Shown piece after piece: positions 7,139 through 62,062 of a stretch of 62,954 bases of DNA. Source of the DNA: Asterionella formosa. Taxonomy: Eukaryota. The position numbers and the translations under genes are program-made. The stretch spans positions 1-62,954 of the forward strand of contig NKIB01013182.1 in assembly GCA_002256025.1 (NCBI GenBank). The letters are read 5' to 3'. The notes under the pieces are model-generated. The model saw nothing but the letters and a program-made list of their open reading frames with translations. It had not been told where the DNA came from and searched no databases. Position 1 is the first letter of the stretch; every line of letters starts with the position of its first letter.

Positions 7139-8075
7139 GATGAGAGATGGTGTATTGATGTGAATGTATAAATTCTCAAATGATATAATAATAGTGTAGT
7201 GTAGTGTATACAAGGAATCGATTGTATCATGTTGTACTCTGGTGGTAATCATGATATCCCCATCATCAAGCAAAAGTTCCTTGTGCAAGTAAGTACCTGA
7301 CCAGGTACCTGGTACCCTGGTAGACTGATGATACGCACTTGATGTCATGAGCATACCGGTACCGGTACCTTTTGCAAATTCATCTACCGGTATTTTATAG
7401 TGTACCTATAGTACGTACTGTGCGAGCAATGTAACGGTACTGCATGCAGGCCAGAGCTCATGACCTTCGTCCACCTCGCAGCCACATCAAATGATGCGTT
7501 AGGCAGTGGGTGATAATTGATACGAACTCTGGAGTGCTCACTTCTTTATAGTGTAGCTTATATTTATCATGATATCAATATGTACCAGTGCTGCACCTCC
7601 CTGTAAAATACACGAATGCCAGTACCTAGTACCTATAATAAGGACGATATATACTATGGTGCTCTGTATCAGCCCACTTAGTAACTAACGGTACCAGTAC
7701 AAGGGTACACCCATACCGGATTATAGGGACGTAAAGACATGATTAATTACCGGTGCAATGATAAATTGCTGTGCGTTCAAAAAAATATTATTACCATGTG
7801 GTACCGGCACCTGTTAACGTCTTAAGATATATCAATACATCATTGAATATAAATATATGTATATATCAAAAACTGTCTACCGGTAATCATACCGATATGT
7901 CAGTGTCAATTTCAAGCACCTGGTGCACTGCACTGATGTCGGTTACCGGTATATGAAATGCAAGAGAGACACTCATGCAGAAACAGAGTCATATGACATA
8001 AGCATACGGTGTAGCTTATGATTTGCTGTACTCGTAATTATCATCATTCTTTGCCATGAGCGATCCTCTCCAACA

Positions 8076-9638: not shown

Positions 9639-9678
9639 ACAATGACGAACAAAGCAACAACTGGTAAAAATCCATTTT

Positions 9679-10666
9679 TTATAATATAATACAAAAATTG
9701 GCTGTTTGATGCGCTGGCATAATTCCACACATCATCAAATTGGGTTGACACATGTTTGAAGCTTGTTCTTCTAATTCACGTTCCTTGGTTCGTTTATCCC
9801 GTCTTTGTTGCAGTTTGTGCTGCTGCTGTTTTTTCTTTGATGGCGTGTTTGTGGCAGTTGTCGACGTTGAATGCGACGATGACAGTGGTGGCATGGCAAC
9901 AGGCTCGTCCCCGTTCCCTTTAACGACCCTTCCATCTTGTACTTTTGCCCCTGGTGTCACTGGTATACGTTGTTTCCCTCCTTGTTGATATTCCAAGACA
10001 CGTTCCGTGACTTTCCTAAACAACTTCGTCACATTGGTATCCATCTTGGCGGACGTTTCCATAAACATGGCCCCCATGGCATATGCCAAGGTCTCTACTT
10101 CTTCATTCGACACAACTGAGGCTGCCAAGTCACATTTGGTAGCCACAATACAAATAACAATACTTCCAGCGGAAATGTTTCTTTGGACTTCTTCAATCCA
10201 TAGTTTCATACAATCATAGCTAGACCGAGAGGTGGTGTCGTAACAGATGAGTACCGCTGCTGCCGTTTGATAATACATTTTGCCCATGCGTTGGAATTGC
10301 GCTTGTCCTGCTGTATCCCAAATTTGTATTTTGCATGTCATGTTGGACACTTGGAGTCGCTTGGTAATGAAAAAGGCCCCTACAGTAGGAGCACGAGCGT
10401 TGGGGCGGAAGTGACCCTCGGCGAAGCGCAACACGAGTGATGTTTTACCAGTATTGGTGTCGCCCAGCATGACGACCTAGTTGTTGTTGTTGTGTGAGTT
10501 ATGAGTGAGTGAAATCTGAACTGAATGAAAGGAATAGCTAGCTAGATCTAAATGGCTGGCTAGCTAGCTAGCTATTAGCTGAGTAGCAAATAGGCGACAA
10601 CCAAGTGAAATTCATCCTGCAACGACGCACCTTGAATTCTGCTTGAGGGAGTTCCACATGAGGCAT
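9679..10666 (-). CDS. Rab-family small GTPase (Rab5/21/22/24-like group), 2 exons
   Basis: Exon 1 (10666-10631) MPHVELPQAEFK; intron 10630-10477 (GTGCGT...CTAG); exon 2 VVMLGDTNTGKTSL, PTVGAFF, WDTAGQ, ATKCD, ETSAK; C-terminal CIIL. Confidence 0.9.
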
Positions 10667-11568
10667 CGTTGCTTGTTCTCTATTCGTAGTTACTTAGCTA
10701 GCGAAACGATGGATTCAAGGATAGGTAAATGACAAGGCTGGTGAGAACGGTTGCAGTGCGATGCTTGTATTTGTATGTCATATATAACAACAACCATGAG
10801 AGGTTTTAATATCGTTCTCACAGGTCGTGATGGTGTCCAAAGAAAATATGTCGTCTCGTGCGTCTACATGTAAGGCAAATAGAAAATACGTAGAAAAGTA
10901 TGAAGTCTCTATTAGTTTAGCCGGCCAAGCGACATTGCATGATTTCTCTACATAACCGAATACATTTTAATATACATGATGGCTTTCTTCCGACGATTCG
11001 CCTGGGGGTTGTTGCAGTCTTTCCTGGACAGGCGAGGCGGCAGCTCCATTTTGGCGAGCGATGCTTGCAGGCTTGTATTTAGCTTTGTCATACAACAAGA
11101 GTGTATGTACGTACATGATACACATAATGTCCAATGCATTTGGGGATCTGGCATAGAAGAAATACCGGTACCGGCAGGTCTTTCACTCATTAAAAGTAGT
11201 ATGCACGACAGGGGCCGGGTGAATTTCCACATCGTTGGTACCAAGGTCAAGTTAAAGACGGAATGATCTTCGGTATTTACCAGGACCAAGTCGCCTGTAC
11301 TACCAAGTAGACTAAAATTGTTGCGCACAGGTAGTTACTCACTGGAAATGAGCTTGGTTGGTTGTGTAACCAAATAGCAGTTTTATGTCATTACAAAGGA
11401 GTTGCCTATATACATACGGGTAGTCGAATACCCCGTATACAGTATACAGATTACAAGGGAATGAATGACATTGCACTCAAGCATTTTTTACCATGTAACA
11501 TGCCCAAAATGTGTAAGTTTATTGGTCCTTAGGGACCAAGTCTCCATACAAACAATCTCTGAGTGTTT

Positions 11569-13617
11569 TTACAGCAAGGATGATTGATCCACAGTACTTT
11601 GACGATCAGCACGTGCCAATCGCCGTCGTTGTTTGGCACTTTCGGTAAAGTAGTAGTATACACCAACCACGACAATACCAAATGCAAAAATAATTGATGC
11701 TGGTCCAGACTCCGTCCCTTTGTTAGTGTTGATAAAATCAGCTACCATCAAGATGTAATCAAATGTCCCATGCAGAACAATGGCAGGGAACAGGGCTCGA
11801 CCTAGTTCAGAATTGCGTGACTTTTCCACATCTCGCTTCACAATGCCTATTGATTGAATAGCAGCACAAATGGGATGAACAGGAAAGATCATGCGAGCAA
11901 TCAAGACAGACGTTTCCATAGTGACAGAGTGGTCATTGTATAGAAAAATGTACAGCAAGTTCTCGCAACACGCAAAACCAAGTGCCACTGCCACCATGGT
12001 GACAGTGATCATAGCGCCTCGGACCGTTCGTGGACGGTCTTGGATTTCTGTGGGAATATCTTGTAGGATCGATAGTGCATCATGCTTTTGCTGGGTGTTT
12101 CGTCGATTCTGGAGTTCCTCTTGAGATAACCAAATGGCTCCTTCCAACTCAGATCGATCCCAAAAATCAGGATGGTCTGATACCATTCTAAAACCAAGAT
12201 ACCGAACAAGCTCTTCTATGAGGGCAGCTAAACAATAAGCTGCCAAGAGAAGATACAGGGCATACAAAAATGGATGATCCTGACTAAACACATCCAAATA
12301 ATCCCTACGGGTGGCAGAAGCCATGGCGAACCCTCCCGGCAAGCGAAATGAATTGAATTGTGAGTACCCGTCAGTAATGACTGACACTTGAACTCCTGTC
12401 ATGGCCAACATTACATCCATCAGAATTCGCAATGCCACACCAATCACGGTTTCCCAACAAATCGCCAGGGTTGTGCTCAAAAAGAATCCACAACTAAAGG
12501 CCTTGACAATCAAGTCAAAACTGACATCATGTCTGTACCAAATCCAGTGCACAAAACCCATAAAGACAAAGGCATGCAGAAAGGCTCCGAAGCACACCAG
12601 CACATGACCGTATGAAAATTTCAGATACGTTGTCAGTGCAATCATCACAATGAAGAAAACGAGCCATGCTTGCAATAGATGTATGGAAAGTTGGGAGAGT
12701 GTGAAGCATATTTCTCGTGCCATTCGTTTTCTCAAAATTGTGGGATAGTACATGGCCCAACTTTGCATTGTGATATAATCAATTCTGCGTCCATCACGTT
12801 CCATGATTGCTTCCAGTTCGCGAGCTTCTTGAGCAATCCCACACATGCCACATATTTGTAAATAACAGCCACATAATTTGCCACAACATAATTGTGTATA
12901 GAATCTCCACAGACATCCCATGAGGTCTCTTGGTGCCACATCAGGCAGTTCTTTCGGTTTGTCTTGTCTATAGCAGCCCATAAAGGCATGCACGCACATG
13001 ATATCCATATTCGATTGTCCTTGCATGTATACAGCCTCGTCGTCATTGTCGTCCGGCGTTTTCCCAGTCCTGAACCCATACGATCTCCACAACAGTTCTT
13101 GTCTAATTCCCGAGCGTTTCCAGCGTCCTTTGCAACATTGCATGACAAGAAAGACACACATGAGCGCCACCAATACAGTCGAGACCAATTGGTTGTAATA
13201 ACTATCTGAAATATTGGTGGCTGCCACACAGGCACAAGTGAACAAAAAAACGGGTAGGACAATATGATATGAAAAATGTAACAGGATCCGTCGAATACAG
13301 GAAGGGGGAGGAATTCCTGTAATTATATATCTGTCGCGGTCTGACTGCAAAATGCCACAGCAAACCAAGGAGCAAGTGTCTGTGCGCTCGCTGGATTTGG
13401 AAACATATTGATGCGATATTGAGGACGAAAAGCCTCTGTACATTGGTTTCAATGGGTCAACCTCTAAAGTTAGAGAGGGATAGTCTTGCTGTTGTTGTTG
13501 CTGCTGCTGTTGTTGATGTTCCTGTTGTGGTGGCTCAACTCGTGGCTGCTGAGTGATGCTCTTTTGCGACGACAGAACTGTGACAAGGGTTTTGAAACGA
13601 TTCATTATTCGGCTCAT
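11569..13617 (-). CDS. PrsW-family (M82) intramembrane protease with N-terminal PLAC8-like Cys-rich region
   Basis: PrsW motifs AALIEELVR (EExxK-like), GFACCEN (FxxxE), VHPIC and LHGTFD (HxxxD) within multiple TM helices. N-terminal CSLVCCG...RSGIRQ...CCGKLCGC..CGMCGIAQEARELE is PLAC8-like. Confidence 0.8.
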   Translation of the reverse strand: MSRIMNRFKTLVTVLSSQKSITQQPRVEPPQQEHQQQQQQQQQQDYPSLTLEVDPLKPMYRGFSSSISHQYVSKSSERTDTCSLVCCGILQSDRDRYIITGIPPPSCIRRILLHFSYHIVLPVFLFTCACVAATNISDSYYNQLVSTVLVALMCVFLVMQCCKGRWKRSGIRQELLWRSYGFRTGKTPDDNDDEAVYMQGQSNMDIMCVHAFMGCYRQDKPKELPDVAPRDLMGCLWRFYTQLCCGKLCGCYLQICGMCGIAQEARELEAIMERDGRRIDYITMQSWAMYYPTILRKRMAREICFTLSQLSIHLLQAWLVFFIVMIALTTYLKFSYGHVLVCFGAFLHAFVFMGFVHWIWYRHDVSFDLIVKAFSCGFFLSTTLAICWETVIGVALRILMDVMLAMTGVQVSVITDGYSQFNSFRLPGGFAMASATRRDYLDVFSQDHPFLYALYLLLAAYCLAALIEELVRYLGFRMVSDHPDFWDRSELEGAIWLSQEELQNRRNTQQKHDALSILQDIPTEIQDRPRTVRGAMITVTMVAVALGFACCENLLYIFLYNDHSVTMETSVLIARMIFPVHPICAAIQSIGIVKRDVEKSRNSELGRALFPAIVLHGTFDYILMVADFINTNKGTESGPASIIFAFGIVVVGVYYYFTESAKQRRRLARADRQSTVDQSSLL

Positions 13618-14407
13618 TTATTGGCCGTCCTGGCTGGAATTAGAACAGTTCTATATGGAGGATATGGGATCTTAAGGGTGCTGCTGATGAATATATCGTT
13701 GTGTATCTCAACTTCCAAATCCTCTGTTTGTAGTGTGATTGGAACGTCGAGTTGAACACCGGCCGCTATCAAATAATTATTTAATTTTTGATAATGGCAG
13801 GAGGATGCTCCAACAAAATATGAGCATTGAGAGTACTGGTACCAGGTAGAGTAGCAGGTACCTGGGACCTGATCTGGTTGGTACTGGTATCACCAAGGTA
13901 ATAAAGGCGGGAGGATTTCTGGACCTTTCTTGAATATATATACACACGAATATATATAAACATTTTTTGATTTATCTTTCTTAACAGTATATTGCATATT
14001 ACTAGCGGTAGTTCCACTACTCCTGTTAGGATATGCCGGTACTCGTACCAGTACCCTTCTGCATGCTGTGTTAGTTAACATCCTGGTACAAAATTGAAAT
14101 AAACTGTACGATTATACATACCTGCATGCCCCGTAATTGCCGGCCTGCGCGTGTGGCATTGCAATTGCTCCTGATTTTACATAAAGTTACATGCATGGTA
14201 TTCTACATGCATTTAGGTTCGAGGATAAACCGGAATGTGAGCACCGGGTACCTGTATTGTTAAAGATCTGCTCTACTGGTCTCAAGTCACACCAAATCAC
14301 ATCGTGATTTGATGTACATAGGATACTACTGGTAACATGTCTCGTCGTCACTTCTTTGCCATACTACCACTACAACTTGACTACCTGATACGACTCCTAC
14401 TCCTGAC

Positions 14408-44712: not shown

Positions 44713-44891
44713 GTGGCAATCGCTGAAATTCATTATATCATACGTACTTGTATATCGTAAACAAGGCGACAAACTCTGTTTGTCAATGGGCATTAACCGT
44801 TAAACAGCCTCACAAAATTCTGTAAAACCACTTCGCTCATATCATGTTACAGGTATTTGCATAATAGCGCACAGTTCTGTAACTGGATAAC

Positions 44892-47800
44892 ATGGTGCAA
44901 AATGCATTCGTCGACAATGTCGAAATTTGCGTCATGTGCGTGTGCGATAAGCCTCCAAGGTTGCCACTCAGAGAAGAGCTTGTCTCGCTTGGCGTAGAGG
45001 TTATTCGCAATGCAAAAGGCACTGGAGTAAATGCAATAAAGTCGGCAGTGAAAGAGACTGTCAAGGGTTTTCGCAAAACTATAAAGGATCGCGAGAAGAA
45101 AAGGTTTCGATTCTTTCCCAGGGTAGCGAAACAGAAGGAATTGGAGCGCGATCTTCGACAAGGAAGGAAGTCTATCACGTATCATGACTACGCCAGAAAG
45201 CTTCTTGAGCAAACAAGCTCAGAAGATTCAAGCTCTTTGTCCAGTTGCGGAAGCATTTTTACATCGGAAAATGAGATGCAACCAGGTCAAGGTCAGCCTG
45301 GACTGCCCACAAGTGCTGAAGCCAAGGTAGCAGGAAAGGATCAAAGGGATGTGCAGCAACAAACAATTGATTCTGCTTGGGCTAAATTTACTGCATCAGA
45401 CCAGGAACTGGAAGCCAAGGAGATACTAAGGTTTCCAGAGCAGGGTGGAGTTCTGACGAATGTTGTATCCGGGTGGAGACATGGATGGGATGAAAGGGAT
45501 TCTAACCTTGCTTTTGCTGTATTTTCTCAAGACAATCAAGGACTTAAAACCAAGGTCACTGGCGATATCGATGCCAGTTTCAGCTGGTCATCAGAACCCA
45601 AGTATGCCTTCCCCACTGAAACATACTGCACTAGCGATGAGCGAGACACCTCAAATGACTTCAATAACCCGTTTAGTTTTACAAACGAAACCCCCTTTAA
45701 TGATGAAGATGATGCAGATAGAACTTCCATTCATGGATTGTCTGAGCTTTTTGGTACTGAATCATATACAAATAGAAATCTTCCGTGGTATGAAAATTTT
45801 GAGATGAATATGACTACCGGAAGTCCAGTCATTGCCAATATGAATAAGCTCGAGATGCCACTCATTCCATCCAATGTACCATCAGTTCTAACAGAACAAG
45901 AAAAAAGGCAGATAGGCAGCAGGAACTGGGCTATATCAACCTTCAATGGCATTGCCGATGGAATCTATGAAGTCACCTCTTCCAATGAATCAGAAACTTT
46001 CAAGGAACCAATTGAGGATAATAGAAATCATACTTCCAGTGTCAATGATCTCTTGAGGGTTTCTGCTGCATGTGTTAATGGTACTGGCTCTGCTTGCGCT
46101 GCTTTTCAATCCAATACAACCAAGAAGGAGTTTTTTACCACTCTTAACAAAGTATTTGCAGTTCCCGAAGAAATCCAAACAATACTCAATGGACAGCCAG
46201 AATTAGCCAAGGCGAAAATGCGAACTGATGGCAGACTAGCTCTCCATGTAGCTTGCAACCGATGTTTTCCGGATCGATTCAGGAAGAAGAAAACTACTGA
46301 TCTTTTGAGTATTTTAGATCACCTTATTAATGATATCAGCATGTTCCGTTCTATCATTGAAATTGTTGCAAGGGCATTTAAGGAAGCATGTGCAGTGCCC
46401 GATAAGAACAGTGATCTTCCTGTGCACTTGTTAGCCCGTCGCCTTCTTGAGTGGGAGTCAGAGTGGCATTTTAAATTTGAAAATGGAAGTATTTTAAGTG
46501 GCGAAAACATGGCAAAGCTCACTCGGCTGCATCGAGAAATGGCACTTTCCATTGATATTGTATTGGAGCCGATTGCTGTTACTCGTGCATCATGTTGTCG
46601 AAGAGGCAGCGTGGGAAGAATTTTACCACTTCATATTGCGTCAATCTTTATTGTTCAGTACAACACACTTGAAAAAGTTCTAGCAACCTATCCAGAGGCA
46701 GCTACTGTCCCTTGCAATCTCAATGGGCTGCAGTCTGTCTTCAAAAGTGATGCCCTCCCATTGGAACTACTTGAAAGTCGTAGAAATCAGAATGTGTCTG
46801 ATGAATTAGTTAAACATGACCAAAAGGCTAAAAAGGGAAAATATGGTGTAAAGTGGACCCAATCTGTGTTGGACAATGGAAGTCATGCGGAAGACCTTGT
46901 ATGCAGGTCTGACCTCATCTTTGCCTTTTATCCAAGTATTCTTCCTTTCCGCAAAGATGCTGATCGAATGCAGCGTATTGAGTCCCTCATTTGTACTGAG
47001 GCCAAATTCCAGGCTGTTATGTCTGATTTTGACGATAGTTTGTTTGATCCAGCAGTTCGATCTGCTTGGGTCTGGATGTGTACATTTGATGAGTCCACGG
47101 CTGACGAGAAAGACAGCTATGTCCCAAGTGTTGAACATATTGTTAACTCGCTTGATTTGAACGCCGTGAAGAAATTGTCAGCAATGAAAACTTTCAGGGG
47201 ACAGAAAGTATTAGATATCGCAATCTCACCCTGTGCAGAAGTCATCCGATCCCGATTAGACGGCAACAACATGACGACACAGAAATTTTCACCTTCTGAT
47301 AGCATGCTATCAATTTCATCTTCACTATTGTCAAGACGGTCTATTCTGAGAAATACGAAATTAAGCCAACACTATCGATCTCAGCGAGCAACTCTACATG
47401 TGAGTTCATTAGCCAAACAAGTTTTCAATGTTAAAACAAGTGCCTTTCCGACAAGCTTTGTTATCTTGCCCTATAAGTTGAAGAGGAATCAGGATGGCTC
47501 CTTGTCACTTGAGTCAGCGGCTTCCGCAAATACAGCTGCAAAGTTCGCAAATTTGCTTTTAGAATTTACTCAACCCAGAAATATCCATCACATTCTTGAA
47601 AGGAAGGCCAATCAATTCTCAGAGAGACAGGTTGAGGATATGCATACAGATGGCTGGGCATTCAATGAGGTGACGCTTAATCTTCTTACAAATGATCTCC
47701 TTAGTCTTTTTCGGAAACAAAAATGTGGCTTCTTGTATCTTCTCGATGAAGCTAGTGGAGTGCCCGTAGTGCCCTCTGAGACTGACAGTCATTTATCATT

Positions 47801-48953
47801 CCCTATTCCAGTGCTAAATCCAAAAGAGACCATCAAGAATCTGCTTCCTTTGATGATGATGGGAATGGTTCTTATGCGGGGAGAAAAGGCCTTGTCGATC
47901 CTCGCAGCATCAATGTTGGAAGAAGTCGATCAGGTTCCAGAGAATTGGATCGCTTCTTCGCAGGAGATTATTGGGTATTTATTCTCCCAGAATGCCAAAA
48001 ACTCATTGATTCCAGGTATTGCGGATGCAATGATGATGAAGGAAGATCTCATCGATTTCGTTTCCAGAGCCACTGAGGTAACCTACACCCGACACCAGGA
48101 GTTACACAATGGAAATGATTGGAACGGGGAACTATCTTTCCTGAGCCACTTGTTGGAACGGTATGATCCTCGACGCTCATTTTCTGGTTTGAAAGCTAAG
48201 TGGTTTTTAAATGGAAACGTAGTTTGGTCTGTCCCAAATTATGAGGGACAGAAAGAAGCGCCTTCTGTAAGTCCAGCTCTTCAGCGACTAGAAGAAAATT
48301 ACATAATGTGCCCTTTTGGAATTGAATCACAGACCATGATCCCAGATCAGCAAAGTAGTGCATCTGCAGGGGTTAGTATCCTCAAAAGCACATCCATGTT
48401 CAGCGAGATGACTGAACCAAAAAATTTCTTTGAAGGAGAAGACGAAAGCTGGGATATGCAATCTTTGGGGATTCGCAATGGAATTCCCCCTGAAAGACAT
48501 GTGTGCCTAAGTGTGACTCCAACGTTGGTAGACCATCCAGATAATCAGACATTGTCGACAGCATCACTTACTTCACAAGAGACGTCTGACTTGGCTATCA
48601 ATAAAGCCTGGCAACAAAATTTAGTTTTTCAGGAAACACATCTAAACGGGAACCTGGAGAAACTGAAAATACTGGATTTTGACGAACAGAACATGATTCA
48701 AGGCGAACCAACGTTAAGCCAACTTGGCCATGATGATACTTTCTATGATGAGAGCACAGTTTGTTCTTTTGGTTTGGACACTGGAAGCTATTCAAAACAA
48801 GGCAAAATTGACGTGTCAAACAGGGTTCTCCAACAGCTGTGTAGTTTAGAAGAACGGCTTCTTAGTCGAGAAATTGAACTTCAGCAGCTCAAGTCAGATC
48901 TTAATGCATTTACACAGGAAGCGATGAAGCAAAAGCAACTAGCAAAAAAATAA
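44892..48953 (+). CDS. Large hypothetical protein with degenerate ankyrin-like (LPLH-type) repeats and C-terminal coiled coil
   Basis: 1353-aa intronless ORF; GRLALHVAC, SDLPVHLLAR, RILPLHIAS, ALPLELL; C-terminal LEERLLSREIELQQLKSDL. Confidence 0.7.
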   Translation: MVQNAFVDNVEICVMCVCDKPPRLPLREELVSLGVEVIRNAKGTGVNAIKSAVKETVKGFRKTIKDREKKRFRFFPRVAKQKELERDLRQGRKSITYHDYARKLLEQTSSEDSSSLSSCGSIFTSENEMQPGQGQPGLPTSAEAKVAGKDQRDVQQQTIDSAWAKFTASDQELEAKEILRFPEQGGVLTNVVSGWRHGWDERDSNLAFAVFSQDNQGLKTKVTGDIDASFSWSSEPKYAFPTETYCTSDERDTSNDFNNPFSFTNETPFNDEDDADRTSIHGLSELFGTESYTNRNLPWYENFEMNMTTGSPVIANMNKLEMPLIPSNVPSVLTEQEKRQIGSRNWAISTFNGIADGIYEVTSSNESETFKEPIEDNRNHTSSVNDLLRVSAACVNGTGSACAAFQSNTTKKEFFTTLNKVFAVPEEIQTILNGQPELAKAKMRTDGRLALHVACNRCFPDRFRKKKTTDLLSILDHLINDISMFRSIIEIVARAFKEACAVPDKNSDLPVHLLARRLLEWESEWHFKFENGSILSGENMAKLTRLHREMALSIDIVLEPIAVTRASCCRRGSVGRILPLHIASIFIVQYNTLEKVLATYPEAATVPCNLNGLQSVFKSDALPLELLESRRNQNVSDELVKHDQKAKKGKYGVKWTQSVLDNGSHAEDLVCRSDLIFAFYPSILPFRKDADRMQRIESLICTEAKFQAVMSDFDDSLFDPAVRSAWVWMCTFDESTADEKDSYVPSVEHIVNSLDLNAVKKLSAMKTFRGQKVLDIAISPCAEVIRSRLDGNNMTTQKFSPSDSMLSISSSLLSRRSILRNTKLSQHYRSQRATLHVSSLAKQVFNVKTSAFPTSFVILPYKLKRNQDGSLSLESAASANTAAKFANLLLEFTQPRNIHHILERKANQFSERQVEDMHTDGWAFNEVTLNLLTNDLLSLFRKQKCGFLYLLDEASGVPVVPSETDSHLSFPIPVLNPKETIKNLLPLMMMGMVLMRGEKALSILAASMLEEVDQVPENWIASSQEIIGYLFSQNAKNSLIPGIADAMMMKEDLIDFVSRATEVTYTRHQELHNGNDWNGELSFLSHLLERYDPRRSFSGLKAKWFLNGNVVWSVPNYEGQKEAPSVSPALQRLEENYIMCPFGIESQTMIPDQQSSASAGVSILKSTSMFSEMTEPKNFFEGEDESWDMQSLGIRNGIPPERHVCLSVTPTLVDHPDNQTLSTASLTSQETSDLAINKAWQQNLVFQETHLNGNLEKLKILDFDEQNMIQGEPTLSQLGHDDTFYDESTVCSFGLDTGSYSKQGKIDVSNRVLQQLCSLEERLLSREIELQQLKSDLNAFTQEAMKQKQLAKK

Positions 48954-50673: not shown

Positions 50674-50777
50674 CGGGGGGGGGGGGGGGGGGGTGGGGGG
50701 GGGGGGGGTGGGGNNNNNNNNNNCCCCCCCCCCCCCCCCCCCCCCCCCCCCCTTCCTCCCCCCCCCCCCCCCCCCCC
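50641..50777. other. Scaffold gap flanked by poly-G / poly-C sequencing artefact
   Basis: ~70 G, then 10 N, then ~55 C; typical of no-signal poly-G read tails joined across a gap. Confidence 0.9.
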
Positions 50778-50877
50778 ACAAAGTCTCCTGACATACATCA
50801 GCTCACAACCAGTAGCTATAATCCATATGTATATTGGATAGATACGAAAGCAACCTTAATACAGCTACAATACCAAA

Positions 50878-52194
50878 ATGGTTCGTTTTGTTGTTGTTGT
50901 TGCCATGGTGATTGTCCAGTTCAGTTCTTGCCATTCAGCAGCAGTAGCAGCAGCAGATGTTGCCAGAAGTAGCAGCGATCGAAACACAATTACAACACCC
51001 AAATCACGTCGGGATCGATTCCCTTCCATTGACGAACGGGTTCAATTGTACATGTCCAATTGGTATGCGCCTCCATGTTCGAAACGAGATGAATTCCCCA
51101 TTTCCGTTCTTGGCGACACTCTGACCGTGGCCAACACTACCTTTGGGTCGGACGTTATTCCTGATCAAGTCTTTTGGGTACGACCCAATGTCATTTTCGA
51201 TTGTGCACGATCAGAAGCACAAGTCGAACAAGTAACGTACCCAGAGACGGAATCAAAGATTAAATTTCGTCAGAATATGCGCATGTATTGTTTTGATGTA
51301 CTGGAAATGATGGATTTGGTACATCATGTGGGACACCCTCAGTTACCATTACTGGTGCAATTTGGAGATTTGAAACATTCACATGTCTATGGAGACGTGC
51401 CCTTTCCTCACATGAAGAAGTTCCGTTCGGGGACACCTAGTTTACCTCTGGTGCTGTCCAAGGACTGTTATACACAAACGTCTCGACGGGTGTTGCAGAC
51501 ATTTCATTCCACGACTATCCTACAACCTATTATTTGGAAATTGGCCACTCATCGGCATTACAGGAATTTAGAAAAAGTATGTCGACATGATACCGAATGG
51601 GATCATAAAGTACCACGTGCGGTTTGGAAAGGTCAATTGACGGGGTCGGCGCAGGGATTTGATAAAACCAAGACACCCTTGCAAAATTGTCTGTCGTTGC
51701 GTCGGTGTCGATTGGTGTACCAATCCCACAACTCGACCTTGGTGGATGCTCAATTAACTACAACACGTAATCGACTGCCCAACATTCTCAATGAAGTACC
51801 ATTGGTTAGCCCAAAGGTGACTATTCAAGATTTGATGAAATACAAGGCACTCATCATGTTGGAAGGTAATGATGTAGCATCGGGTCTGAAATGGGCACTC
51901 TTGTCACAATCGGTTGTTTTAATGCCACCACCAAAACATACATCTTGGGCTATGGAGGAATGGCTCATCCCGTGGGTACATTATATTCCTCTACTGGATG
52001 ATATTTCTGATGTGGAACAACAGATGCAATGGGTTGTGGATCATGATGATGAAGCACGACGTATATCGGAACGTGCCACATTGTGGATGGAAGATTTATG
52101 CTTTCATCCTGATGCAAAACAAGACGATCGATTGATTATGGAAGATATGTTGAGACGATATTCCGCGCATTTTGACATGAGGCACATTCAGTAG
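50878..52194 (+). CDS. Glycosyltransferase family 90 (CAP10/Rumi-like) protein
   Basis: Signal peptide; W..K.PRAVWKGQLTG, KYKALIMLEGNDVASGLKWALLSQSVVLMP, LIPWVHYIPL, ARRISERA. Confidence 0.85.
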   Translation: MVRFVVVVAMVIVQFSSCHSAAVAAADVARSSSDRNTITTPKSRRDRFPSIDERVQLYMSNWYAPPCSKRDEFPISVLGDTLTVANTTFGSDVIPDQVFWVRPNVIFDCARSEAQVEQVTYPETESKIKFRQNMRMYCFDVLEMMDLVHHVGHPQLPLLVQFGDLKHSHVYGDVPFPHMKKFRSGTPSLPLVLSKDCYTQTSRRVLQTFHSTTILQPIIWKLATHRHYRNLEKVCRHDTEWDHKVPRAVWKGQLTGSAQGFDKTKTPLQNCLSLRRCRLVYQSHNSTLVDAQLTTTRNRLPNILNEVPLVSPKVTIQDLMKYKALIMLEGNDVASGLKWALLSQSVVLMPPPKHTSWAMEEWLIPWVHYIPLLDDISDVEQQMQWVVDHDDEARRISERATLWMEDLCFHPDAKQDDRLIMEDMLRRYSAHFDMRHIQ

Positions 52195-54187
52195 CTATGG
52201 TAGTGTGATCGAGGGGATATCCAGTGCAGCCTATGGTTTTCGTTTCACACTTTGTAAATTATCATCAATTCAAGTAACAGTGATGATGGTTGCGAAACTG
52301 CTCTGTTCCATTTATGTGTATTGGCTTTGACATGTATGTAATATCTTGAATCATGGATTGCCTACGATGCAAGAGTTCATAATGTTGGTCAACTTTATCC
52401 ATTTGTTCGAGTACCACAGACTTTTAATACATACTTTTTAAGTAATGAGTTCCATGTCTGGTACTTAATGCACAAATCACCCTTTAATAATATCATTCCA
52501 GCATGTGTTCATATACAGGTAGCTAAGGAATGTGCCTACTATGAGCAATGTCCAAGCCAATCCATAATTTGTAGTAAAGGGAAATTGATCAGGATAGTTC
52601 ACCTATCCAGAAAACATTGCATCTGTTTTGATACAGTCATTGAAAGTACTGGATAAAACAGGAAAATTTTTGAATCATATCCTATGATATTATGACGACT
52701 ACTTATCTATAAGTGTAACCAATAATAGTCCCTTCATATTTGTCCACTGAAGGATAACATTGCAAATTCTGTGGTATCAGAATATATGCTGTATGGGTTG
52801 CCTGTAATAATGGATCTAGAAATTCTTGGATAGCTGTTTTTCCTTCATTACTCCCCTTGATTCAAGGTGATGATAGATGTCATTGCAATAGCTCTATCTT
52901 GAAGAGGCCTGGCTGATACTCTGTGTTATTTGATTTGATGGCACTTCATCCTTGTGCACAAATGAATTCTATTTTAATCAGGATGCTATGTGGAGTTGAC
53001 CCATATGTTCCCATACTTTGACCAATGACTGTATCTTATCATATGCAAAGGGTGTCCAATGGTGAAAGCTCTGAGTATAGCAGTGTAATATATATTTTTA
53101 CTTTATTTCTTTGTTGAAATGTGTGTTAGATTACTTTGAATGTGTCGTATGCACATGAAGAAAGGCCTACCACATGCATGATGGTAATTCTGTAGAACAT
53201 ATATATTTGGTATCGTACCGGTATTACCGGTACTGGTACCAGGGTACCAGGTACCTGGTGACTTCAGGAAATATCACACTACCGGAACCGGGTAACCCAC
53301 ATTACAGTACGACAGAAGGAAGGCCGCAGCAAAATCAAGGCAGTCCGTGTTTCGGCTGGAGGATGTGTGTTGTCTACCGGCATTGTATTCATGGGAAAAC
53401 AAGGAGGGTGCCAACTCGCTTCAAAACCATCCTCAGTCGACCAGGGGGGCAAGATTGGTCGTGGGTGGTGCTGCTACATAGCTAAAATTCTTTGTGCCAG
53501 GTACCGCAGAAAGAATTGTTTATAGATGTAAAGATGCTTTGTAAGATTTTATTGCTGTCTTGATATGAATATCCGGTGTACATGATACAGTCGTATGCAT
53601 TACTTACTTCCACATGATGGATTCTCTGCATCAAAGCCGATATCCCAGCATGTTCGGAAGAGCTCGTTGATGACAGAAGACCGCACAAGAACCAGTGCCA
53701 TGAAAAGCAAATGAATGCATTGTGTTACAATGCTCCCATGTGTCTACTGGCTGTAGCACAATCAAAAACCTGGTTCCTGGTCTCGGACTCCTATATACTT
53801 GCAACTATTTGTATGTTTAACATCAAAACTGAATCGCATCCTCCGGAATACCTTATTAATACAGTACATATTTATTAGGTAAACTTCTCTACTTGGTGAG
53901 AACCACGAGAACAATAACTGGATCAGATATGACATAGGTAAAGATTTTCCCATGGAATGTGCCTTGACTTGGATTTTTCCAATACCAGGTTTTCGTGTAT
54001 TCCGATGAGTATTGAATTGCACCATACTGTAGGATGAATGAAAATTTCATTCTCTCGTGGATTGACCAACCAAGTGTAAATGCGAACTGTTCCAAATGTT
54101 TCTATCCTTTCTTGCTTGAACCCACAAGTTCGAGTTTAGAGTTTTGGATCCATACACAGTCCTTTTGCATTTCTTGCTTCAACAGAC

Positions 54188-57100
54188 ATGGTCTTGAGCA
54201 CACAAGATGCAGAGTCTGTGGAGTTCTATGAGGAGACCTTTGACATTCAGATCCCAACTATTATTTCCCATAATGATCCGTTTGCTACGGCCAATTCCGC
54301 GGTGGAAGATGACAATGATAATGATTCCTCGGTTCTGTCAAGAGTGGGCACAGATGGTAACGCAGTGGAGGTGGAAGACGCGTCCGATTCATTACTCATT
54401 ATCCCTATGGACATTGACGAGGAACCAGTAATCATGTGTACTCCTGTGATGGAGAATGTGGCACGACCTGTATCAAACAATGACCCGATGGAAATTGACA
54501 CTGATGTCTCGTTAGTTGAGAATATTAAAGACGTCCCACCTGCAACCCCGTTCAATGATGCATCGAATCCTAATCAGATCAAAACAGTTGCTCAAGATGA
54601 CTCGGTCCAGGAAACAACACCTGTGAGTAAGAATGTACATATCACTTTGAATCGAGAATGTTTGTCTCACCAACATGTTTATTTTCAATTCAGATTCTAG
54701 TTGAGAATGATGGCGTTCCTATTTCAGCTACCATCCAAAAATCGGAATGTGATGATGCTCCGGATGAACACCAAAGAATTTCACCTTTGAGCTTCAAAAC
54801 TGATGATGACGTGAACTTACCTGAATGCGCAGAAACAACTCTTGTGAAACTTGTGGATCTTCTTTCCTCCATCAAGAACTCTGACAATCCGGAACAACGT
54901 GCAAAGATTGAGGCTTCTCTCGCTCTTTTGACAAAGCAGCTTGGAGGAAACGTGGTCAACCCTGAAATTGACAGCTTATTGGACCAATTACAAACACCTA
55001 ACCTCGGTTATTCTGAACTTCTTGCCTTGACTACTAAGATGCTCACTTTGCTCCGACCTGTTGATTTGAATAGACTCTACTGTCTACTGACTGCGAATCA
55101 TTCGACTGGCAATAGCATTGCTGACAAGGACATTATACTTCTATTAGGAGGTACAGGTTCAGGAAAAACCACAACTCTCTTGTTTCTCGCTGGCTGCGAC
55201 TTTATTGAGCAGGAAATAAATGGTTTTGACCATCTTTTCCCAGTTGTTGACGAGAAGAATGCCCAACTTGCTTTATTTTCTACTTCGCATCGGGCTTGCT
55301 CGGAAACCCGAACGATTCAAGCCGTTGAACTCTCTGTAGATGGAAAAACTGTCTATGTTTGTGATACTCCCGGCTTTGGCGACACTGGAGGCGTGGAATA
55401 TGAGATCGCCAATGGAATTGGGATAGTCCGCGCGTTGCATCGAGCCAAAACAGTGAGACCGGTGTTGATTCTGAGCGAGAAGGGAATGGGAGATCGCTTT
55501 CAAGGCGTTTCAGAAATATTGACCACTATTACTCGATTGCTTGGCGACAATTTTGAGATCGGTGCCTTTCAATATGCTTTCACAAAATATGAACCTCGAC
55601 TTCGAGAAAGACTATGTCGGCAATTTACAGCTAAGTGCGATGACCTCAATGGTATCGAAGGTACTCATGAGATGTTCGGTGCATTTGTTAATGATATAAT
55701 TCGAAAGACCACACCGATTGCCAACCTAGTCCTTCCCATGGAGCGCAACGGTGATAAACTACTTCATACATTGATGAGTGGTACTTCAGTGGAAAAGCCG
55801 AATGAGAAATTTGTTCCCTTCATGTCTGAGGCCTCCAGCAATAAATTGAAGCTTCAGCTGAGTTACACTCTTGATTCATTTCATTGTTGTTTTGCTGCAG
55901 AAATGCTGGCCGAATCGTTCTACTATCTCGGACTGCTCAAGGACCTGAGTAGTGTTCTTCCAGAAGCTCAAGAAGCTGCAAGCAAGGCATCACAAGAAAT
56001 GGAACAGTACGTTTCCGAAAAACGGCAGAAGCTGAGCCAGTCGTTAACCAAGTGCTTGGAAGTGAGGGATCACTCAAGATTGTTTGAGGGCGAGATTTTG
56101 GTGGTTGAATCGGAAATGAAATGCTTGATCAGATTCGATGCATTACTGGGAGGAAATTCCAATCTAGAGTTTTCTCTTCAGAAAGTAAAGGATACAATGC
56201 TTTTACTTGGAGAATGCATTCTTCGTATTGATGAAGAAAATACCCCTTTTGGCTATGTGATATCTCAAGGTAATGCCATTGTGGCTTCCCTAGTTCAAAC
56301 CATGGTTCTTAGTAATCTTGTGGACCGTATCAGCCTCTCGGGTCATGCAGTAAACTCTGCGGTGGCAGACATACACGTGCGATGTTGCCATGTGGTTCAT
56401 TCTATTTTACAGGGGGCTGTCAAGGGAGCTGAACTTCGCGAACAACAAATCTGGAAGCCCACTTCAACTGAGCGCTCGTTGAAAGAACTAGTGGCCAACA
56501 TGATTTTCATTCGAAAGGTACTTCGGCCCGCGAAAGATTGCTATTCGATGAAGGCGGATGACCTCGAAGCTAGCTGGAAAGAATTCAAAAGCCACCTGGA
56601 AACTGAACTAATAATGCACATTGAAAAAGTATCCACCTCCCTTCGCTTTCACGTTGACAATTGGAATATCGAGGCTTTACTGGGAATCGATACCACATTG
56701 ATTGTGGCTGACTATCAAAAACTGGTTTTGAATTTTTAGCATTTCCAGAAATGTTTGATGGTCTCTATCGGATGAAATATTGTGATGCAGAAAAGGCTCG
56801 TGAGAAAGCTGAATCGGGAATCATTGAATTGTCTATTCATTTGGCACAAGGTTGTCTTAAGTTGAGGAATGATTTGACCGATGTCTGCGGCTTGCCTGAG
56901 GTTCAGATTTTACTCGAAACTACTGCTCGTATCTCACATATTCTTAAGACATTGAAAAGTGGTTCTGACAAAATCGGATCTGATTGCGGTGTGTGGCATG
57001 GTCGTGTGGTTGCAATGGAAAATTCCCTCCAAGAGCAGTTCATTTTACTTGAGTGCGCGGCAGACAAAGTTGTTGTGGACGCAATTTCTCATGGCGAGAA

Positions 57101-60100
57101 ATGTCTCGCCGATTTTCAAAGTGGTAGTATCCAAATTTCGCTGAAGAACCTTTCCAATGCTTGGGACTCTTTGAGTAAACTATTTATTGTTTCACCTGTG
57201 AAGAAAGGGAAGAAGTCTTGGTTTCCAAATTTTTTCTGGTCGCCTCCAGCGGATCCTTCAAGCAATCCAGCAGTTCGCGACCGACATAAATCACAGATTT
57301 CAAAACTTATGGATTGTATTGCACGTACGGTTATGAAATGTTTGCAGTCTGCGATGCATTTGATAACTGCAACGCCCTGGGCTTCTGGAGATGGCATCTT
57401 GGAACCTTTCCGGTCCGCTGTATTTTCAAACGAAGCTATTTTCTTCTTGGCGTTCCTTAATATTCACGAAAACGGCTCGTTGCTTACTAAAAGCATAATG
57501 TATACAAGTGGTCACCCTCATTTGATCCATCCAACAATTCTAAAAAGATCCATTGCAGCCATGACTGCCTTCTTTAGCAAATGGGCAAATACGTGGTCAC
57601 ATTCGATGAAATTGAACAATTACATGCTTCTGGCAAGCATGCTTAATATTCTACGCGATGACAGTTGGGGATTTTGGAAATTCATGTTTGAACTTGATCC
57701 CTGCAACTTTGACTCCTAACACTTACGTCCAAGAAAGGAAGTCTTCAATTTAATCATAGGAATCCAACAATGCAAGAATTTCGACGACAGCAATGCATCG
57801 ATCCTTGCGAGCCTACTCCAAATCCAAGACAAAACTTGTCACGTTTCATTTCTTTTGAGAAATGAGACCCAAACGGCGAACGAAGATGACCTGAATGCAT
57901 TCTATAAGGGTTTAGTAGACTCGATTGAATCTACCAATGGCATTGAGTGCCTCCAAGGCATTGTAGATTCTTCTGTCATTGACATCATCACACTTCAATC
58001 ACATGGAAAAGCTAATATAATGGCACAGGCAAAGGCCATTGGTCATCGTGTTATCACTCTACTCGAAGCATTTCCAAACAACCGGGAGGCATGTAAGAAT
58101 ATCTACATTTGGATGGGCAACATGACTTCTATGGAGATTTGTTTCTCAGCCGTGCTTGTTGAAGTTGCGAACTTAATCAAGGAACTGAAGCAGCAAGCCC
58201 AACAATCCCTAACTGATCGCATGAATGGAGATTTGAGACATTTCCTTTCAAGTCTTACTAGGGTCATACACAAGGAGTTGGTTATGCACTTGATAATGTT
58301 GAAGAAAGCAACGTTGGAGATTCCTTGTTGGCGAGTTGAAATAAATTCCATGATTAGTAACGTTATATCAAAAATGGCTGATCAAACAAACAACAAAGAC
58401 CGATTCGTGCTAACACTCTTGTTGGAGCTTCAAAATATCCAAGATAATGACTCCTCAATTGCCAAGCAAATAATATCCGAACATGAATGTTTCAAAGGTG
58501 CAACGAATGCTGTTTTTAATTCCGCCACCAAATGTCAAGGAATCGACTATGTACTGAGATGCTTGAAACTGCCTCAAGGTAGTGATGCGGAAACCTCCCT
58601 CAAGGAAATGTACCATCAATTTCAGAAGGAGTATAACTTGTACGTGGACGAGGGAATCGGGATATTCCTTGCCATCGATAGCAGCGCAGATGACATGGAT
58701 AATTTGTTTGAGCGAATTGTTCATGAAGCCACCCGGATCGCCAGGGACTTTAGCATTGCTTATCGTTCGCAAATTGTCAGTATATGCGCCAATGTGTTTG
58801 CGTATTGGACATTAGTGAACTCCACGAGCTCACTGCAGACATATTCACCTGGTGAATCATTCCCTGCTGACGAAGGGCATGAGAAAATAATGAGACCCCA
58901 TGCAGCTCAAGTCGTTGGAATTTGGTCTCTTTTGAACTACAAAGAAGCTGAAGTTTGCGATCTACAGAATCAACTGGTGGAAGTCTTGACAGGAGAAGGA
59001 AAATCCATTGTTCTTGGAGTAACTGCCATTGTGCTTGCGTTGTTCAATTGTACGGTTGAGTGTGTTTGTTACAGTACCTATTTAAGTGACCGCGATGAAT
59101 GCGCTTTCTCCGAAATGTTCAAGCAATTCGGAGTTGAGGAGTTTATCAATTATGGGACAATTGATTCAATGATGGAACGATTTGTGAATCAGGACGGATG
59201 TATTCGTGATCTAACTGCTAAACTGGCTTTCACCAGTGCAAGTATCAATTCGAAGAGAAAAGAAGGAGAAATGGACGAGACAAAGCGAAGAGTGTTCCTT
59301 GTTGATGAAGTTGATGTGTTTTTTAAGGACGACTTTTACGGTATCACACACAATCTCGGAGCGTCAATGCACCATGAAAGGATTCAGTCCCTTTTTCAAA
59401 ATGCTTGGGAGTGCGGAAACAAAGGCAATACAAAACCTGGACCAAAATGGGATCAATGTGTCAACCTTTTTCGCAACGAACTACATCCTCTCATGAAGAG
59501 TGAGTTTCTCAAAATGTTTAGGGAAGCTAAGGAAGCGAATTGTCATCATTATTTGGTGTCAGATGGAAAGATTGCCTACAAAAACCTTGACGGACTCACG
59601 ACGTCACGTTATTATTCCTATTTCACTGCCTTTGCCTATATCAAGGAATATGAAAAAGATTCAGTCACGCACTCTGAAATGCTCAGAAATCTTAATATTC
59701 ACCTGTCTTGCGGAACATTATCGTATGCTGAAATACCGGTTCACTTTGATGTCATCATTGGGGTAACGGGTACACTCAAAGGTATATCGGAACAAGAATG
59801 GGGCATTTTACAGTCCTGCTACGATATTTGGAAAGTGCGATGCAGCTTTTTGCCATCTGTGTATGGAGACAACAAACTCCGATTTGCTGGCGACTCTGAA
59901 AGAGGTAAGTGCTGTGTCCCACAAAAACACAGTCGCTCCACACATTTTTAATTCTCACATTTTTTCTAAAGACGTGAAACTTTGCAGAGACGAGGACTCT
60001 TTCTTTCTTGATCTTGTCCATGAGATTGAAGCAAGGCGACGACCAGAAAGTCCAGGATACGATATTAAGCGTCCAGTGATGGTTTTCTTTGAGTCATCGA

Positions 60101-61251
60101 AAACGCTCCTTGAATTTTATCAGTCCGAGCAAATGGAATTTCTTCGATCAAGTTCACGGACGATAACAGAGAGCATTCTTCCAACCGACAAAGAGGGTGC
60201 ATTCCTTCAAGCAACGTCCGCTGGGGCCATTACACTAATGATTCGAGAATATGGACGAGGAACCGATTTCAAATGCTTTGACAGCACAGTTCTGGATGCT
60301 GGTGGGGTACATGTTATTCAGGCATTCTTTTCGAAGGAAATTTCCGAAGAGATCCAGCTTAAAGGGCGAGCAGCAAGACAAGGAACCAGTGGATCGTTCA
60401 GGTAAGCACGATACTATGGAGACAGTGATCACAAACCTCTGATCGCATATTTTTCTCATCATTTTTTTTTCTTTGTCACGAAACCTTGTTGCAGCATGGT
60501 TTTGCTTGAAAAACAGCTTGTGAGGGATCTGTGTGTCAGTGCCCCAGAGTTGCAGACTATGCGTCTCAAGTCAGAATATTGCACTTTCTTGGATCGCAAA
60601 CGATCAGAACTAGCCAGCGTGAAGTGTTTGGAAATGGAAAACAAAGTCAAGAATGCTGAGACGAAACATTATAAAACATTGAGATACAAGCAAGCCTTGA
60701 TGAACAATGAAGATGATGTTGCAATTGCTTATCTTTACGAAGCCAACAATTGTCATAACGGTTCTCGTCTACGTGTTCAAGGGCTTTCTAAGCAAGAGTT
60801 CATCGCCAAGAAACGCGAACGTTACTTTAACTTTCTTATCGATGAAAAGGTTAAGAGGCAAATAGCTGCTCAACATAATAAGCCTTTCGTGTCACCAAAG
60901 GTGGCTATTCTGCAGCTGAAGAATGAAAAGGAGGAAGATTTTTATGAGCTCCTTGGTGTGAAACGCGATGCCACTTCTAAGGAGATTTCCATCGCCTACA
61001 GAAAACAAGCAAAGCGCCATCACCCAGACAAGGTTGTCAATCGCAAGGTATGTCCTTGATACAAGTTACTCGCTGTATAGAAAATGTGCTGATATGTCAT
61101 CCCAGCTAACTGTATATTTACCAAGAAGAAAACCCTTTCCACTAAACGATTGCAGCTGTTGAACGAAGCCAAGGAAACACTGTCGTGTCCAGACAAACGA
61201 GCCGAGTACAATGTGACACTGTTAAATAAGGCCACGGCGAAGAAGGGTTAG
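54188..61251 (+). pseudogene. Giant multidomain gene: acidic N-terminus, P-loop GTPase, helical region, SecA-like SF2 ATPase, C-terminal J-domain; one frameshift and one in-frame stop in this assembly
   Basis: Introns 54623-54693, 59905-59971, 60402-60494 and 61048-61125 join the ORFs in frame. GTPase: LLLGGTGSGKTT, VCDTPGFGDTGG, FTKYE. SecA-like: MRPHAAQ, EVLTGEGKS, STYLSDRD, INYGT, LVDEVD, GVTGTL, YGRGTDF, GGVHVI, QLKGRAARQGTSGS. J-domain: DFYELLGVKRDATSKEISIAYRKQAKRHHPDK...LNEAKETLSCPDKRAEYN. Lesions at ~56735 (frameshift) and 57717-57719 (TAA). The true start may lie upstream (AACAG acceptor just before 54188). Confidence 0.8.
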
Positions 61252-61423
61252 GAAGTCATGATGTCTCTCGTGGGATTCCATCAACTTCAGACCTATGATG
61301 ATTGAATTGTTTGTGAATGCCTTCCAATATATAGTTATATTCATTGCACATTAGTGTTTATGTGGCCTACTATTTGGAACAAAAAAAATCATTGATAGGT
61401 AATTTTATTGCAGCAAGCTATCT

Positions 61424-62062
61424 TTAGCTACCATATCCATCATTCTCTCCACCACTTCCAAGTTTCTTTCCAAGACGAATAAGGTTTGGCAAAAAGAATG
61501 GCAAGGAAAGCGCTACACTCCCCACCAAACCAGCAGCTACAAGGTTCTTTCCACTGTCTGCATTGTTCTTTGCATCTTGTTCTTCCTTGAGTTTCTTGGC
61601 TTTGGCAGCAACATTGGCAGCTTCACTATTGGCAGCAATACGTCGGACCATGGCAGCAGAATCTTCATTGGCGTCCACAAGTGCCAATGCAGTCGTTGGT
61701 GTTACTGTTGCCATGACTGACATTGTTGTAAATCCAACAAGAATGGCAGAGCGCCGAGATGACAAATTGTCTGACGTTGTAGGGGGCGGTGTTACGGACA
61801 ACAATAGTGCTACCAGTATGTGTGTGTTTGTGTGTATATATATAATACATAATATATATTTGTGTTAGAAGAGGGAATACAAAATGCGCAGTACTACCTA
61901 GTATGGTGGACGACATTACAAACCAATATGAGACAAGAATGTAATTCACAAAATCAACTCACCACTTTTGGAGGATCGAATTGTAACGACAGGAATGGTA
62001 AAGGCATTAGAAGATGTTGAAACTAGAGCCACAGCGGCAACGATGGTGGCAAGGACTTTCAT
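61424..62062 (-). CDS. Small nuclear-encoded thylakoid protein with tripartite (signal + transit + twin-arginine) presequence and C-terminal TM anchor, 2 exons
   Basis: Exon 1 (62062-61963) MKVLATIVAAVALVSTSSNA-FTIPVVTIRSSKS; intron 61962-61810 (GTGAGT..GGTAG); exon 2 ...SSRRSAILVGFTTMSVMATVTPTTALA-LVDANED...LVAAGLVGSVALSLPFFLPNLIRLGKK. Confidence 0.8.

Follow-up and report, generated by a model that had tools for sequence, protein, structure and literature searches.

SecA is the textbook export motor of bacteria and plastids, where it works at SecYEG, and the plastid form carries a targeting signal. By the descriptions given in the sources cited here, SecA-like ATPases also occur among bacterial secondary SecA_DEAD proteins (PMC4452313), in giant actinobacterial toxins (PMC8195603) and in giant proteins of Omnitrophota and Actinobacteria, whose divergent SecA_DEAD is described as lacking scaffold and wing and which, in the Omnitrophota, contain numerous membrane helices and are believed to mediate their own export (bioRxiv 10.1101/2023.11.21.568195). 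In Wolbachia, a WO prophage protein has been termed 'eukaryotic-like secA' (PMC9203015), and the phage WO domains reported as closer to invertebrates than to bacteria include 'SecA' (wHa_3920, wHa_3930) (PMC5062602); the effector domains listed for Amoebophilus, an intracellular symbiont, include a GIMAP-type GTPase and a SecA-like, helicase-related domain (PMC3482391). Here we describe a gene at 54188..61251 on the plus strand of a 62,954-nucleotide contig from the diatom Asterionella formosa (NCBI GenBank assembly GCA_002256025.1, contig NKIB01013182.1, positions 1 to 62,954; hereafter 'the window'), in which a GIMAP-like GTPase domain (G domain), a long helical linker, a SecA-like motor and a C-terminal J-domain are encoded in succession and which, in this copy, is interrupted by two lesions.

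Set beside these systems, the window gene shares with the Omnitrophota and actinobacterial giants, as described, a SecA-like motor that lacks the scaffold and wing domains and sits inside a very large multidomain protein, and with the Amoebophilus effectors, again as described, GIMAP-type GTPase and SecA-like domains, which are named together there. Its motor is homologous to those of the WO 'eukaryotic-like SecA' and of giant open reading frames (ORFs) of Legionellales, Chlamydiae and Rickettsiales, but these bacterial ORFs are intron-free and end in a VWA domain or in no recognised tail rather than in a J-domain. Our literature search found no study of the eukaryotic GTPase-linker-motor-VWA/J architecture or of its function, only passing mentions of its domains. 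A further giant J-domain protein, sacsin, has Hsp90-like ATPase modules and, to our knowledge, neither a GTPase nor a motor of superfamily 2 (SF2); by description it follows the same logic of a giant protein that combines ATPase modules of its own with a J-domain near the C-terminus.

A transcribed and spliced gene with two lesions

Six long stop-to-stop ORFs lie on the plus strand (54140-54700, 54631-56739, 56712-57719, 57720-59951, 59767-60405 and 60406-61059). An initial annotation, made from the sequence alone, had joined six ORFs through four canonical introns into one gene of about 2,250 codons. All four GT..AG introns are confirmed by RNA, but two of the junctions between frames are lesions, so that no single ORF carries the gene; the annotation had named lesions only among its proposed checks and not in its account of the gene. 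The evidence comes from public contigs of a polyA RNA library (X5), a lake metatranscriptome (X10) and two DNA samples (X1, and X2 from a lake).

Exon 1 (54188..54622) starts with the first in-frame ATG and encodes a 145-residue acidic N-terminus with 32 D/E against 4 K/R. It is separated by intron 1 (54623..54693, 71 nt; RNA joint 54622>54694 in X5) from a long exon, whose first part (54694..56727, as far as the frameshift) encodes a helical lead-in, the G domain and the beginning of the helical linker. The linker continues for 329 codons in the shifted frame (56730..57716), and the rest of the exon (57720..59904) holds a conserved helical region followed by the first nucleotide-binding domain (NBD1) of the motor, as indicated by a SecA_DEAD match and by 36 long relatives. 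The remaining introns all have joints in both X5 and X10. Intron 2 (59905..59971, 67 nt) precedes the exon with NBD2 (59972..60401; 38-58% identity to family members), and intron 3 (60402..60494, 93 nt) precedes an exon (60495..61047) that encodes the long helix following NBD2, a tail modelled with low confidence and the J-domain's first half. Intron 4 (61048..61125, 78 nt) ends at the acceptor also used by the relative P0001, at 61125 and not at 61155, and this choice, 30 bases upstream of the alternative, gives the J-domain a helix III of normal length. The last exon (61126..61251) contains the second half of the J-domain and the stop codon TAG at 61249-61251, for a read-through total of 2,250 codons. 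The locus is a nuclear, intron-bearing diatom gene that is transcribed and spliced.

The frame of this gene can be compared with that of P0001, a 97%-identical relative that is open at both lesion sites. The first lesion is a frameshift at 56726..56729, where a run of four T contains two T more than the P0001 frame (KLV|EFLAF) and a TAG follows at 56737-56739; the second is an in-frame TAA at 57717..57719, at a site where P0001 has Q. P0001 residues 1-516 align to 55180-56727 with 99.8% identity, and residues 517 onward align in the shifted frame. Without mismatch or gap, the frameshift recurs in an X5 RNA contig (55962-56889) and the TAA in an X1 DNA contig (57003-58400) and an X10 RNA contig (57692-57910), while an X2 DNA contig of 5,305 bases (54575-59879) is identical to the window over both; X5 is uninformative on the TAA, as 57681-57752 is covered by none of the four contigs shown (five in all). 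Their presence in RNA and in two DNA samples shows that the lesions are not assembly slips, and they prevent the window copy from yielding the protein of 2,250 residues. Its maximum product is 826 residues, including the G domain, and the window copy is a transcribed null allele or pseudogene.

Readings in which the frame would be intact at these sites were also considered. A short intron at the frameshift was rejected, since the candidate GT..AG pairs span just 16-45 nt and the RNA contig from X5 follows the genome colinearly. An intron hiding the TAA was rejected as well, with no flanking GT..AG pair divisible by three and a colinear X10 RNA contig. Reassignment of TAA to glutamine was set aside, P0001 reading Q at the site in standard-code translation.

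Other forms of the gene occur in the same material. A second variant is missing 5,235 bases (54603..59837), with CG..TG ends, a two-base overlap and the joint present in both X2 DNA and X10 RNA contigs; given these ends, the missing stretch was deleted from the genome rather than spliced out. Across the junction the reading frame is broken and reaches a stop after 158 residues, and the frame that encodes NBD2 and the J-domain is open for 420 codons. The deletion variant also differs from the window by single-nucleotide polymorphisms (SNPs) on both flanks. In X2 its contig has a depth of 156 against 14.8 for the full-length form, depths that are not shares of cells. In low-depth X2 and X10 contigs over 59236-59450, nine of ten SNPs give exactly the amino-acid differences of P0001, which indicates that a third, P0001-like form is present in the same lake samples.

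Comparison of the window with P0001 over 1,574 positions shows 22 differences (21 substitutions and the stop), two of them in the first 845 residues and 14 in the insert of the motor described below. The differences are concentrated in NBD1 and the insert, at 59235-59700; as judged from sequence, this cluster could mean either that the insert binds clients and is hypervariable or that the allele is recombinant.

Domains of the encoded protein

The motifs on which the initial annotation based its domain assignments (GTPase, SecA-type and HPD) are all present at the positions expected. In the G domain (55129..55710) they comprise the P-loop GGTGSGKT (55147-55170), the switch-I segment SETRT (55300-55314), DTPG (55363-55374) and FTKYE (55579-55593), and the features invariant across the family are the P-loop G and GK, the switch-I T and DxxG. 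Pfam matches to this region were sub-threshold, both for AIG1 (E 0.005; 16.6 bits, cut-off 27) and for MMR_HSR1 (E 0.012). A structural model built from a 27-row family alignment (pLDDT 85, pTM 0.83) was closest in Foldseek to GIMAP7 (E 5e-8; TM 0.45-0.51), with GIMAP5, GIMAP1, GIMAP2 and Toc34 next and then Nog1 and GBP1, and the ESM Atlas neighbours of the domain fall in MMR_HSR1/AIG1 clusters. A phmmer search of the G-domain exon against the Protein Data Bank (PDB) returned nothing but P-loop matches to ABC transporters at E≥0.012. The predicted fold thus agrees with the AIG1/GIMAP-like assignment first made for this domain. Relative to GIMAP, AIG1 and Toc34 GTPases, it has a GIMAP-like modelled fold and the G1, G2 and G3 motifs; it differs in being one part of a giant protein and in that the aspartate after TK is not conserved.

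The motor occupies about residues 1,560-2,070 of the 2,250-residue protein. NBD1 (58890..59774) contains MRPHAAQ (58890), the Walker A motif EVLTGEGKS (58980-59006), YLSDRD (59079), the Walker B motif DEVD (59304-59315) and GVTGT (59760-59774), and NBD2 contains GRGTDF (60253-60270) and QLKGRAARQG (60355-60384). Pfam SecA_DEAD matched the window above its cut-off (E 2.3e-10, 40.7 bits against 24.6); P-loop_SecA matched NBD2 below it (E 5e-4, 20.1 bits against 27). Between Walker B and motif III, where SecA has its preprotein-binding position, lies an insert of about 143-148 residues (59316..59759; model elements 203-345).

We modelled the motor from P0001 residues 1180-1951 with a 27-row alignment (pLDDT 75, pTM 0.70; residues 60-620 confident). 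In the model NBD2 aligns structurally to SecA and is followed by two helices, one long (567-608) and one short, after which confidence is lost. Foldseek placed SecA or SecA2 at every rank from 1 to 35 (E 1.1e-19 to 6.1e-10), followed by Hna (7.6e-9). By VIA, SecA chains aligned to the model over 421-523 residues (Z 17.9-23.8), against about 320 residues for DEAD-box proteins (Z about 16), and SecA-N68 aligned over 437 residues against 354 for the bare Escherichia coli motor. These longer SecA alignments indicate that the insert (DEVD to GVTGT) and the long helix add to the likeness to SecA. The linker before the motor gave no lead in the ESM Atlas (best score 0.78), and a Pfam APC1_C match in the middle region (E 0.0045) was below the cut-off and taken as chance.

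Like canonical SecA and SecA2, the window motor has two RecA-like lobes that bear SecA-type motifs, with an insertion separating Walker B from motif III and a long helix behind NBD2. It differs from them in being embedded in a giant protein with no Pfam match to SecA_SW, no membrane segment, no targeting signal and no C-terminus of the SecA type. The description of a complete SecA-type motor in the initial annotation therefore has to be narrowed, since neither a wing domain nor a SecA C-terminus was found. Judged by its motifs and predicted fold, the motor is SecA-like but not a canonical SecA.

The first half of the J-domain lies at 60937-61047 and contains the intact HPD at 61021-61029, as previously proposed. 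Pfam DnaJ matched the 60495-61047 exon alone (E 1.2e-10, 41.8 bits against a cut-off of 27.8), DnaJ positions 46-63 were recovered on 61156-61248 (E 0.029), and the full DnaJ 1-63 is present in P0001 and P0002. Thus both SecA_DEAD and DnaJ passed their Pfam cut-offs in the domain searches that had been suggested for this locus, and SecA proved the nearest fold to the motor.

A family in eukaryotes and intracellular bacteria

A search among long proteins returned 36 relatives of 1,291-3,388 residues, those named being from Thalassiosira exigua, Rotaria, Adineta, Hexamita, Reticulomyxa, Diplonema and Tetrahymena. TGEGKS is present in 34 of them, and the G region and the motor were both matched in 29, the order being the same in P0002, P0041 and P0068. 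P0068, an ORF of 3,101 amino acids from an MMETSP transcript, combines the G domain and the motor with the beginning of a VWA domain, and so supports the family's fused architecture at the transcript level. In an exhaustive HMMER search of 1.84 billion cluster representatives, 1,430 proteins matched at E≤1e-3, 995 at E≤1e-10 and 479 at E≤1e-30; a profile search with a separate alignment (A4) gave 11 matches and was crowded out. Rotifers have many paralogues. The module, which had been put forward as a candidate undescribed one, hence belongs to a family of hundreds of clusters, and SecA-like and GIMAP-type domains had already been mentioned in passing. This is a large family of eukaryotes and endosymbionts, known in passing and functionally uncharacterised.

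The C-terminal tails of the family vary between two types. Among 179 stored family proteins, 92 keep motif VI and thus have a scorable tail, which is VWA-like in 78 and a J-domain in three (P0001, P0002 and P0041); all 71 tails of at least 250 residues are VWA. The window gene ends in a J-domain, without the VWA of the majority state. Its architecture recurs in P0002 (Thalassiosira exigua, 2,106 amino acids), an occurrence in diatoms that the initial annotation had proposed to look for together with variable C-terminal domains, and in P0041. A homologue search with the P0001 tail and J region had P0001 itself as its sole match. On this distribution of sequences, the J-domain form is a diatom variant of the family.

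Patterns taken from a family alignment (A1) were scanned against prokaryotic genomes, one for each species, and matched 133 stretches, 48 of which were confirmed, giving 40 loci. By title, these belong mostly to intracellular lineages (Chlamydiae, Parachlamydiaceae, Simkaniaceae, Legionellales, Coxiellaceae, Aquirickettsiella, Wolbachia and Candidatus Bandiella), and the remainder to Gamma- and Alphaproteobacteria and metagenome-assembled genomes of Pseudomonadota, with single loci in Actinomycetota, Bacteroidota, Bacteroidaceae and Margulisiibacteriota. The bacterial motor homologues are 28-38% identical over about 600 residues. At five loci (L001, L002, L008, L016 and L018) the G domain, motor and VWA lie in one uninterrupted ORF, L008 having Pfam matches to both MMR_HSR1 and SecA_DEAD. 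Three of five bacterial genomes searched have an ordinary SecA (878-936 amino acids) alongside giant SecA_DEAD ORFs of 1,257-3,913 amino acids. The neighbours of three bacterial homologues are not conserved, being an ankyrin (Ank) and PARP-domain protein, a pentapeptide/AAA protein and NadA.

Some individual loci deserve mention. A Wolbachia contig (L012) carries adjacent giant SecA-like ORFs at 3361-7890 (1,509 amino acids) and 7900-13827 (at least 1,976 amino acids; SecA_DEAD E 4e-32), a pair that recalls the WO prophage gene pair named in PMC5062602; a tblastn search for the G domain in these two ORFs showed none. One Legionella genome (G005, of locus L027) has four giant SecA_DEAD ORFs of 2,418-3,788 amino acids (L048, L053, L055 and L057) in addition to an ordinary SecA of 920 amino acids, and it is the Legionellales homologue L008 that adjoins the protein with ankyrin and PARP domains.

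The relationship to SecA was assessed in a quick maximum-likelihood tree (LG+G4, 67 rows, 527 columns) with three canonical SecA as outgroup and no plastid SecA among the rows. It combined 32 of 117 stored complete-motor proteins (18 chosen, 14 random) with 35 motors that passed a motif filter from 58 loci, the other 23 loci giving none. The family forms one clade of 40 rows, with SH-aLRT support of 100 and a stem length of 1.77, apart from canonical SecA; P0001, the 97% proxy for the window gene, falls inside it, and the diatom trio with J-domains is monophyletic with support of 100. The comparison with SecA that had been proposed as a check thus separates the family from the canonical SecA included. 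Bacterial rows occur in basal (L019; L002, L003, L014 and L016) and internal (L001 and L008) positions. Given the short search and one long-branch warning, we use the tree only to conclude that the family stands apart from SecA and that the diatom trio belongs together, and not for the direction of transfer.

Proposed mechanism and alternatives

Members of the family are predicted to be giant cytosolic proteins built from an N-terminal GIMAP-like G domain, a helical linker of about 1,000-1,700 residues, a two-lobed SecA-like ATPase and a C-terminal adaptor. GIMAP-like GTPases gate or assemble, and by analogy the G domain may gate assembly or activation of the protein. The SecA-like lobes, together with the insert at the clamp position, would hydrolyse ATP to grip a polypeptide and move or unfold it; in diatoms the J-domain could then pass the client to Hsp70 through its HPD, whereas the VWA of most members may provide a metal-dependent contact to partners. 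As the best explanation we propose that the intact protein is a GTP-gated, ATP-driven SecA-like polypeptide motor that feeds Hsp70, of which the window holds a null allele, and we give this a probability of roughly 0.6.

Several points weigh against this proposal. The aspartate of the G4 motif is not conserved: FTK is kept, and the residue two positions on is E, D, S, P or K, which makes guanine specificity uncertain. The Pfam preprotein-binding domain (SecA_PP_bind, searched at E≤0.1 in the window) and SecA_SW were found neither in the window pieces nor in the 38 relatives scanned, and the J-domain and tail of the motor model are of low confidence. In this strain the gene is not covered from end to end by any one RNA contig, the X5 pieces covering 53900-55749, 55962-56889, 56959-57680 and 57753-61500, and P0001 may derive either from a transcript or from gene prediction. 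A GTP-switched unfoldase that recruits Hsp70, and a possible defence role, had been proposed in the initial annotation, and both stand here as hypotheses.

A further difficulty is that SecA-like lobes are SF2 helicase folds, so that the substrate could be a nucleic acid. In that case the protein would be of an innate-immunity type, a sensor or helicase for RNA or DNA that is switched by the GTPase and has the VWA or J-domain as its signalling output. The structural matches that come after SecA (Hna, DinG, XPD, DDX21, RIG-I and MDA5) are in keeping with such a role, and the rotifer paralogues, the null and deletion alleles in one population and the acquisition by intracellular bacteria fit conflict genes. 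We nevertheless consider it unlikely: the motifs TGEGKS, GVTGT, GRGTDF and QxKGRxARQG are of SecA type, the insert sits at the preprotein-binding position of SecA, and SecA chains align over 100-200 residues more than helicases do. More improbable still is that the locus functions as it stands, with the 826-residue GTPase-only product or with downstream products made by re-initiation or recoding, the lesions being tolerated or regulatory. Its mRNA is indeed present and correctly spliced despite the lesions, its first frame has an intact G domain, and the deletion variant keeps NBD2 and the J-domain in an open frame of 420 codons. Yet P0001 and 29 of the 36 long relatives hold G domain and motor in one frame, about 100 codons after the TAA are without an ATG, and no recoding signal was seen, though none was specifically tested for.

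That the gene encodes a plastid or secretory SecA translocase, or that bacterial DNA was misassembled into the window, is scarcely credible and already contradicted by the data, for all that the gene matches Pfam SecA_DEAD and that its bacterial homologues reach 38% identity. Four spliced GT..AG introns are present in polyA RNA; no signal peptide or membrane helix was seen in the read-through protein, whose highest 19-residue hydropathy (2.09) falls within the NBD1 core, and no transit peptide either; phmmer matched solved SecA at just E 0.45; and canonical SecA lies outside the family clade with its stem of 1.77. On the same grounds of targeting signal, search score and separate clade, the earlier statement that this is not the plastid translocase stands.

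Returning to the proposed Hsp70-feeding polypeptide motor, its wider interest lies in a distinct and very large SecA-like branch fused to a GIMAP-like GTPase in giant soluble proteins of protists and rotifers, of which Legionellales, Chlamydiae and Wolbachia, dwelling inside such hosts, also carry copies. The family distribution is relevant to gene exchange between hosts and endosymbionts, and the diatom J-domain form offers a testable hypothesis, that of a motor feeding clients to Hsp70, for which the three allelic states in the lake samples (frameshift and stop, 5.2-kb deletion and P0001-like) are natural loss-of-function material. As far as sequences can indicate, the spread to intracellular bacteria, the rotifer paralogues, the two disabled lake forms and the substitutions clustered in the insert suggest a role in host-symbiont or host-pathogen conflict. 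A fuller version, in which eukaryotes and intracellular bacteria share cytosolic GTP-gated SecA-type polypeptide motors deployed in conflict, with a diversifying insert, repeatedly lost alleles and a rewiring in diatoms from VWA to Hsp70 recruitment, is tentative and in our view rather doubtful; if it were true, SecA-like protein threading would be an activity of the eukaryotic cytosol, beyond export in bacteria and plastids.

Elsewhere in the window, a 1,356-residue open frame at 44883-48950 on the plus strand had no Pfam match at E≤0.001. Further along, an assembly gap of 10 N (50714-50723) lies just upstream of the ORF at 50860-52194, whose 444-residue frame (50860-52191, plus strand) contains a Glyco_transf_90 domain (E 5e-17). 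Near the start of the window are tandem repeats at 54-688 (period 108, 5.8 copies) and 1290-1864 (period 141, 4.1 copies), in a G-rich region with a GC skew of 0.405 over 1-2000, and these repeats may encode a repetitive Gly/Val/Ala-rich protein.

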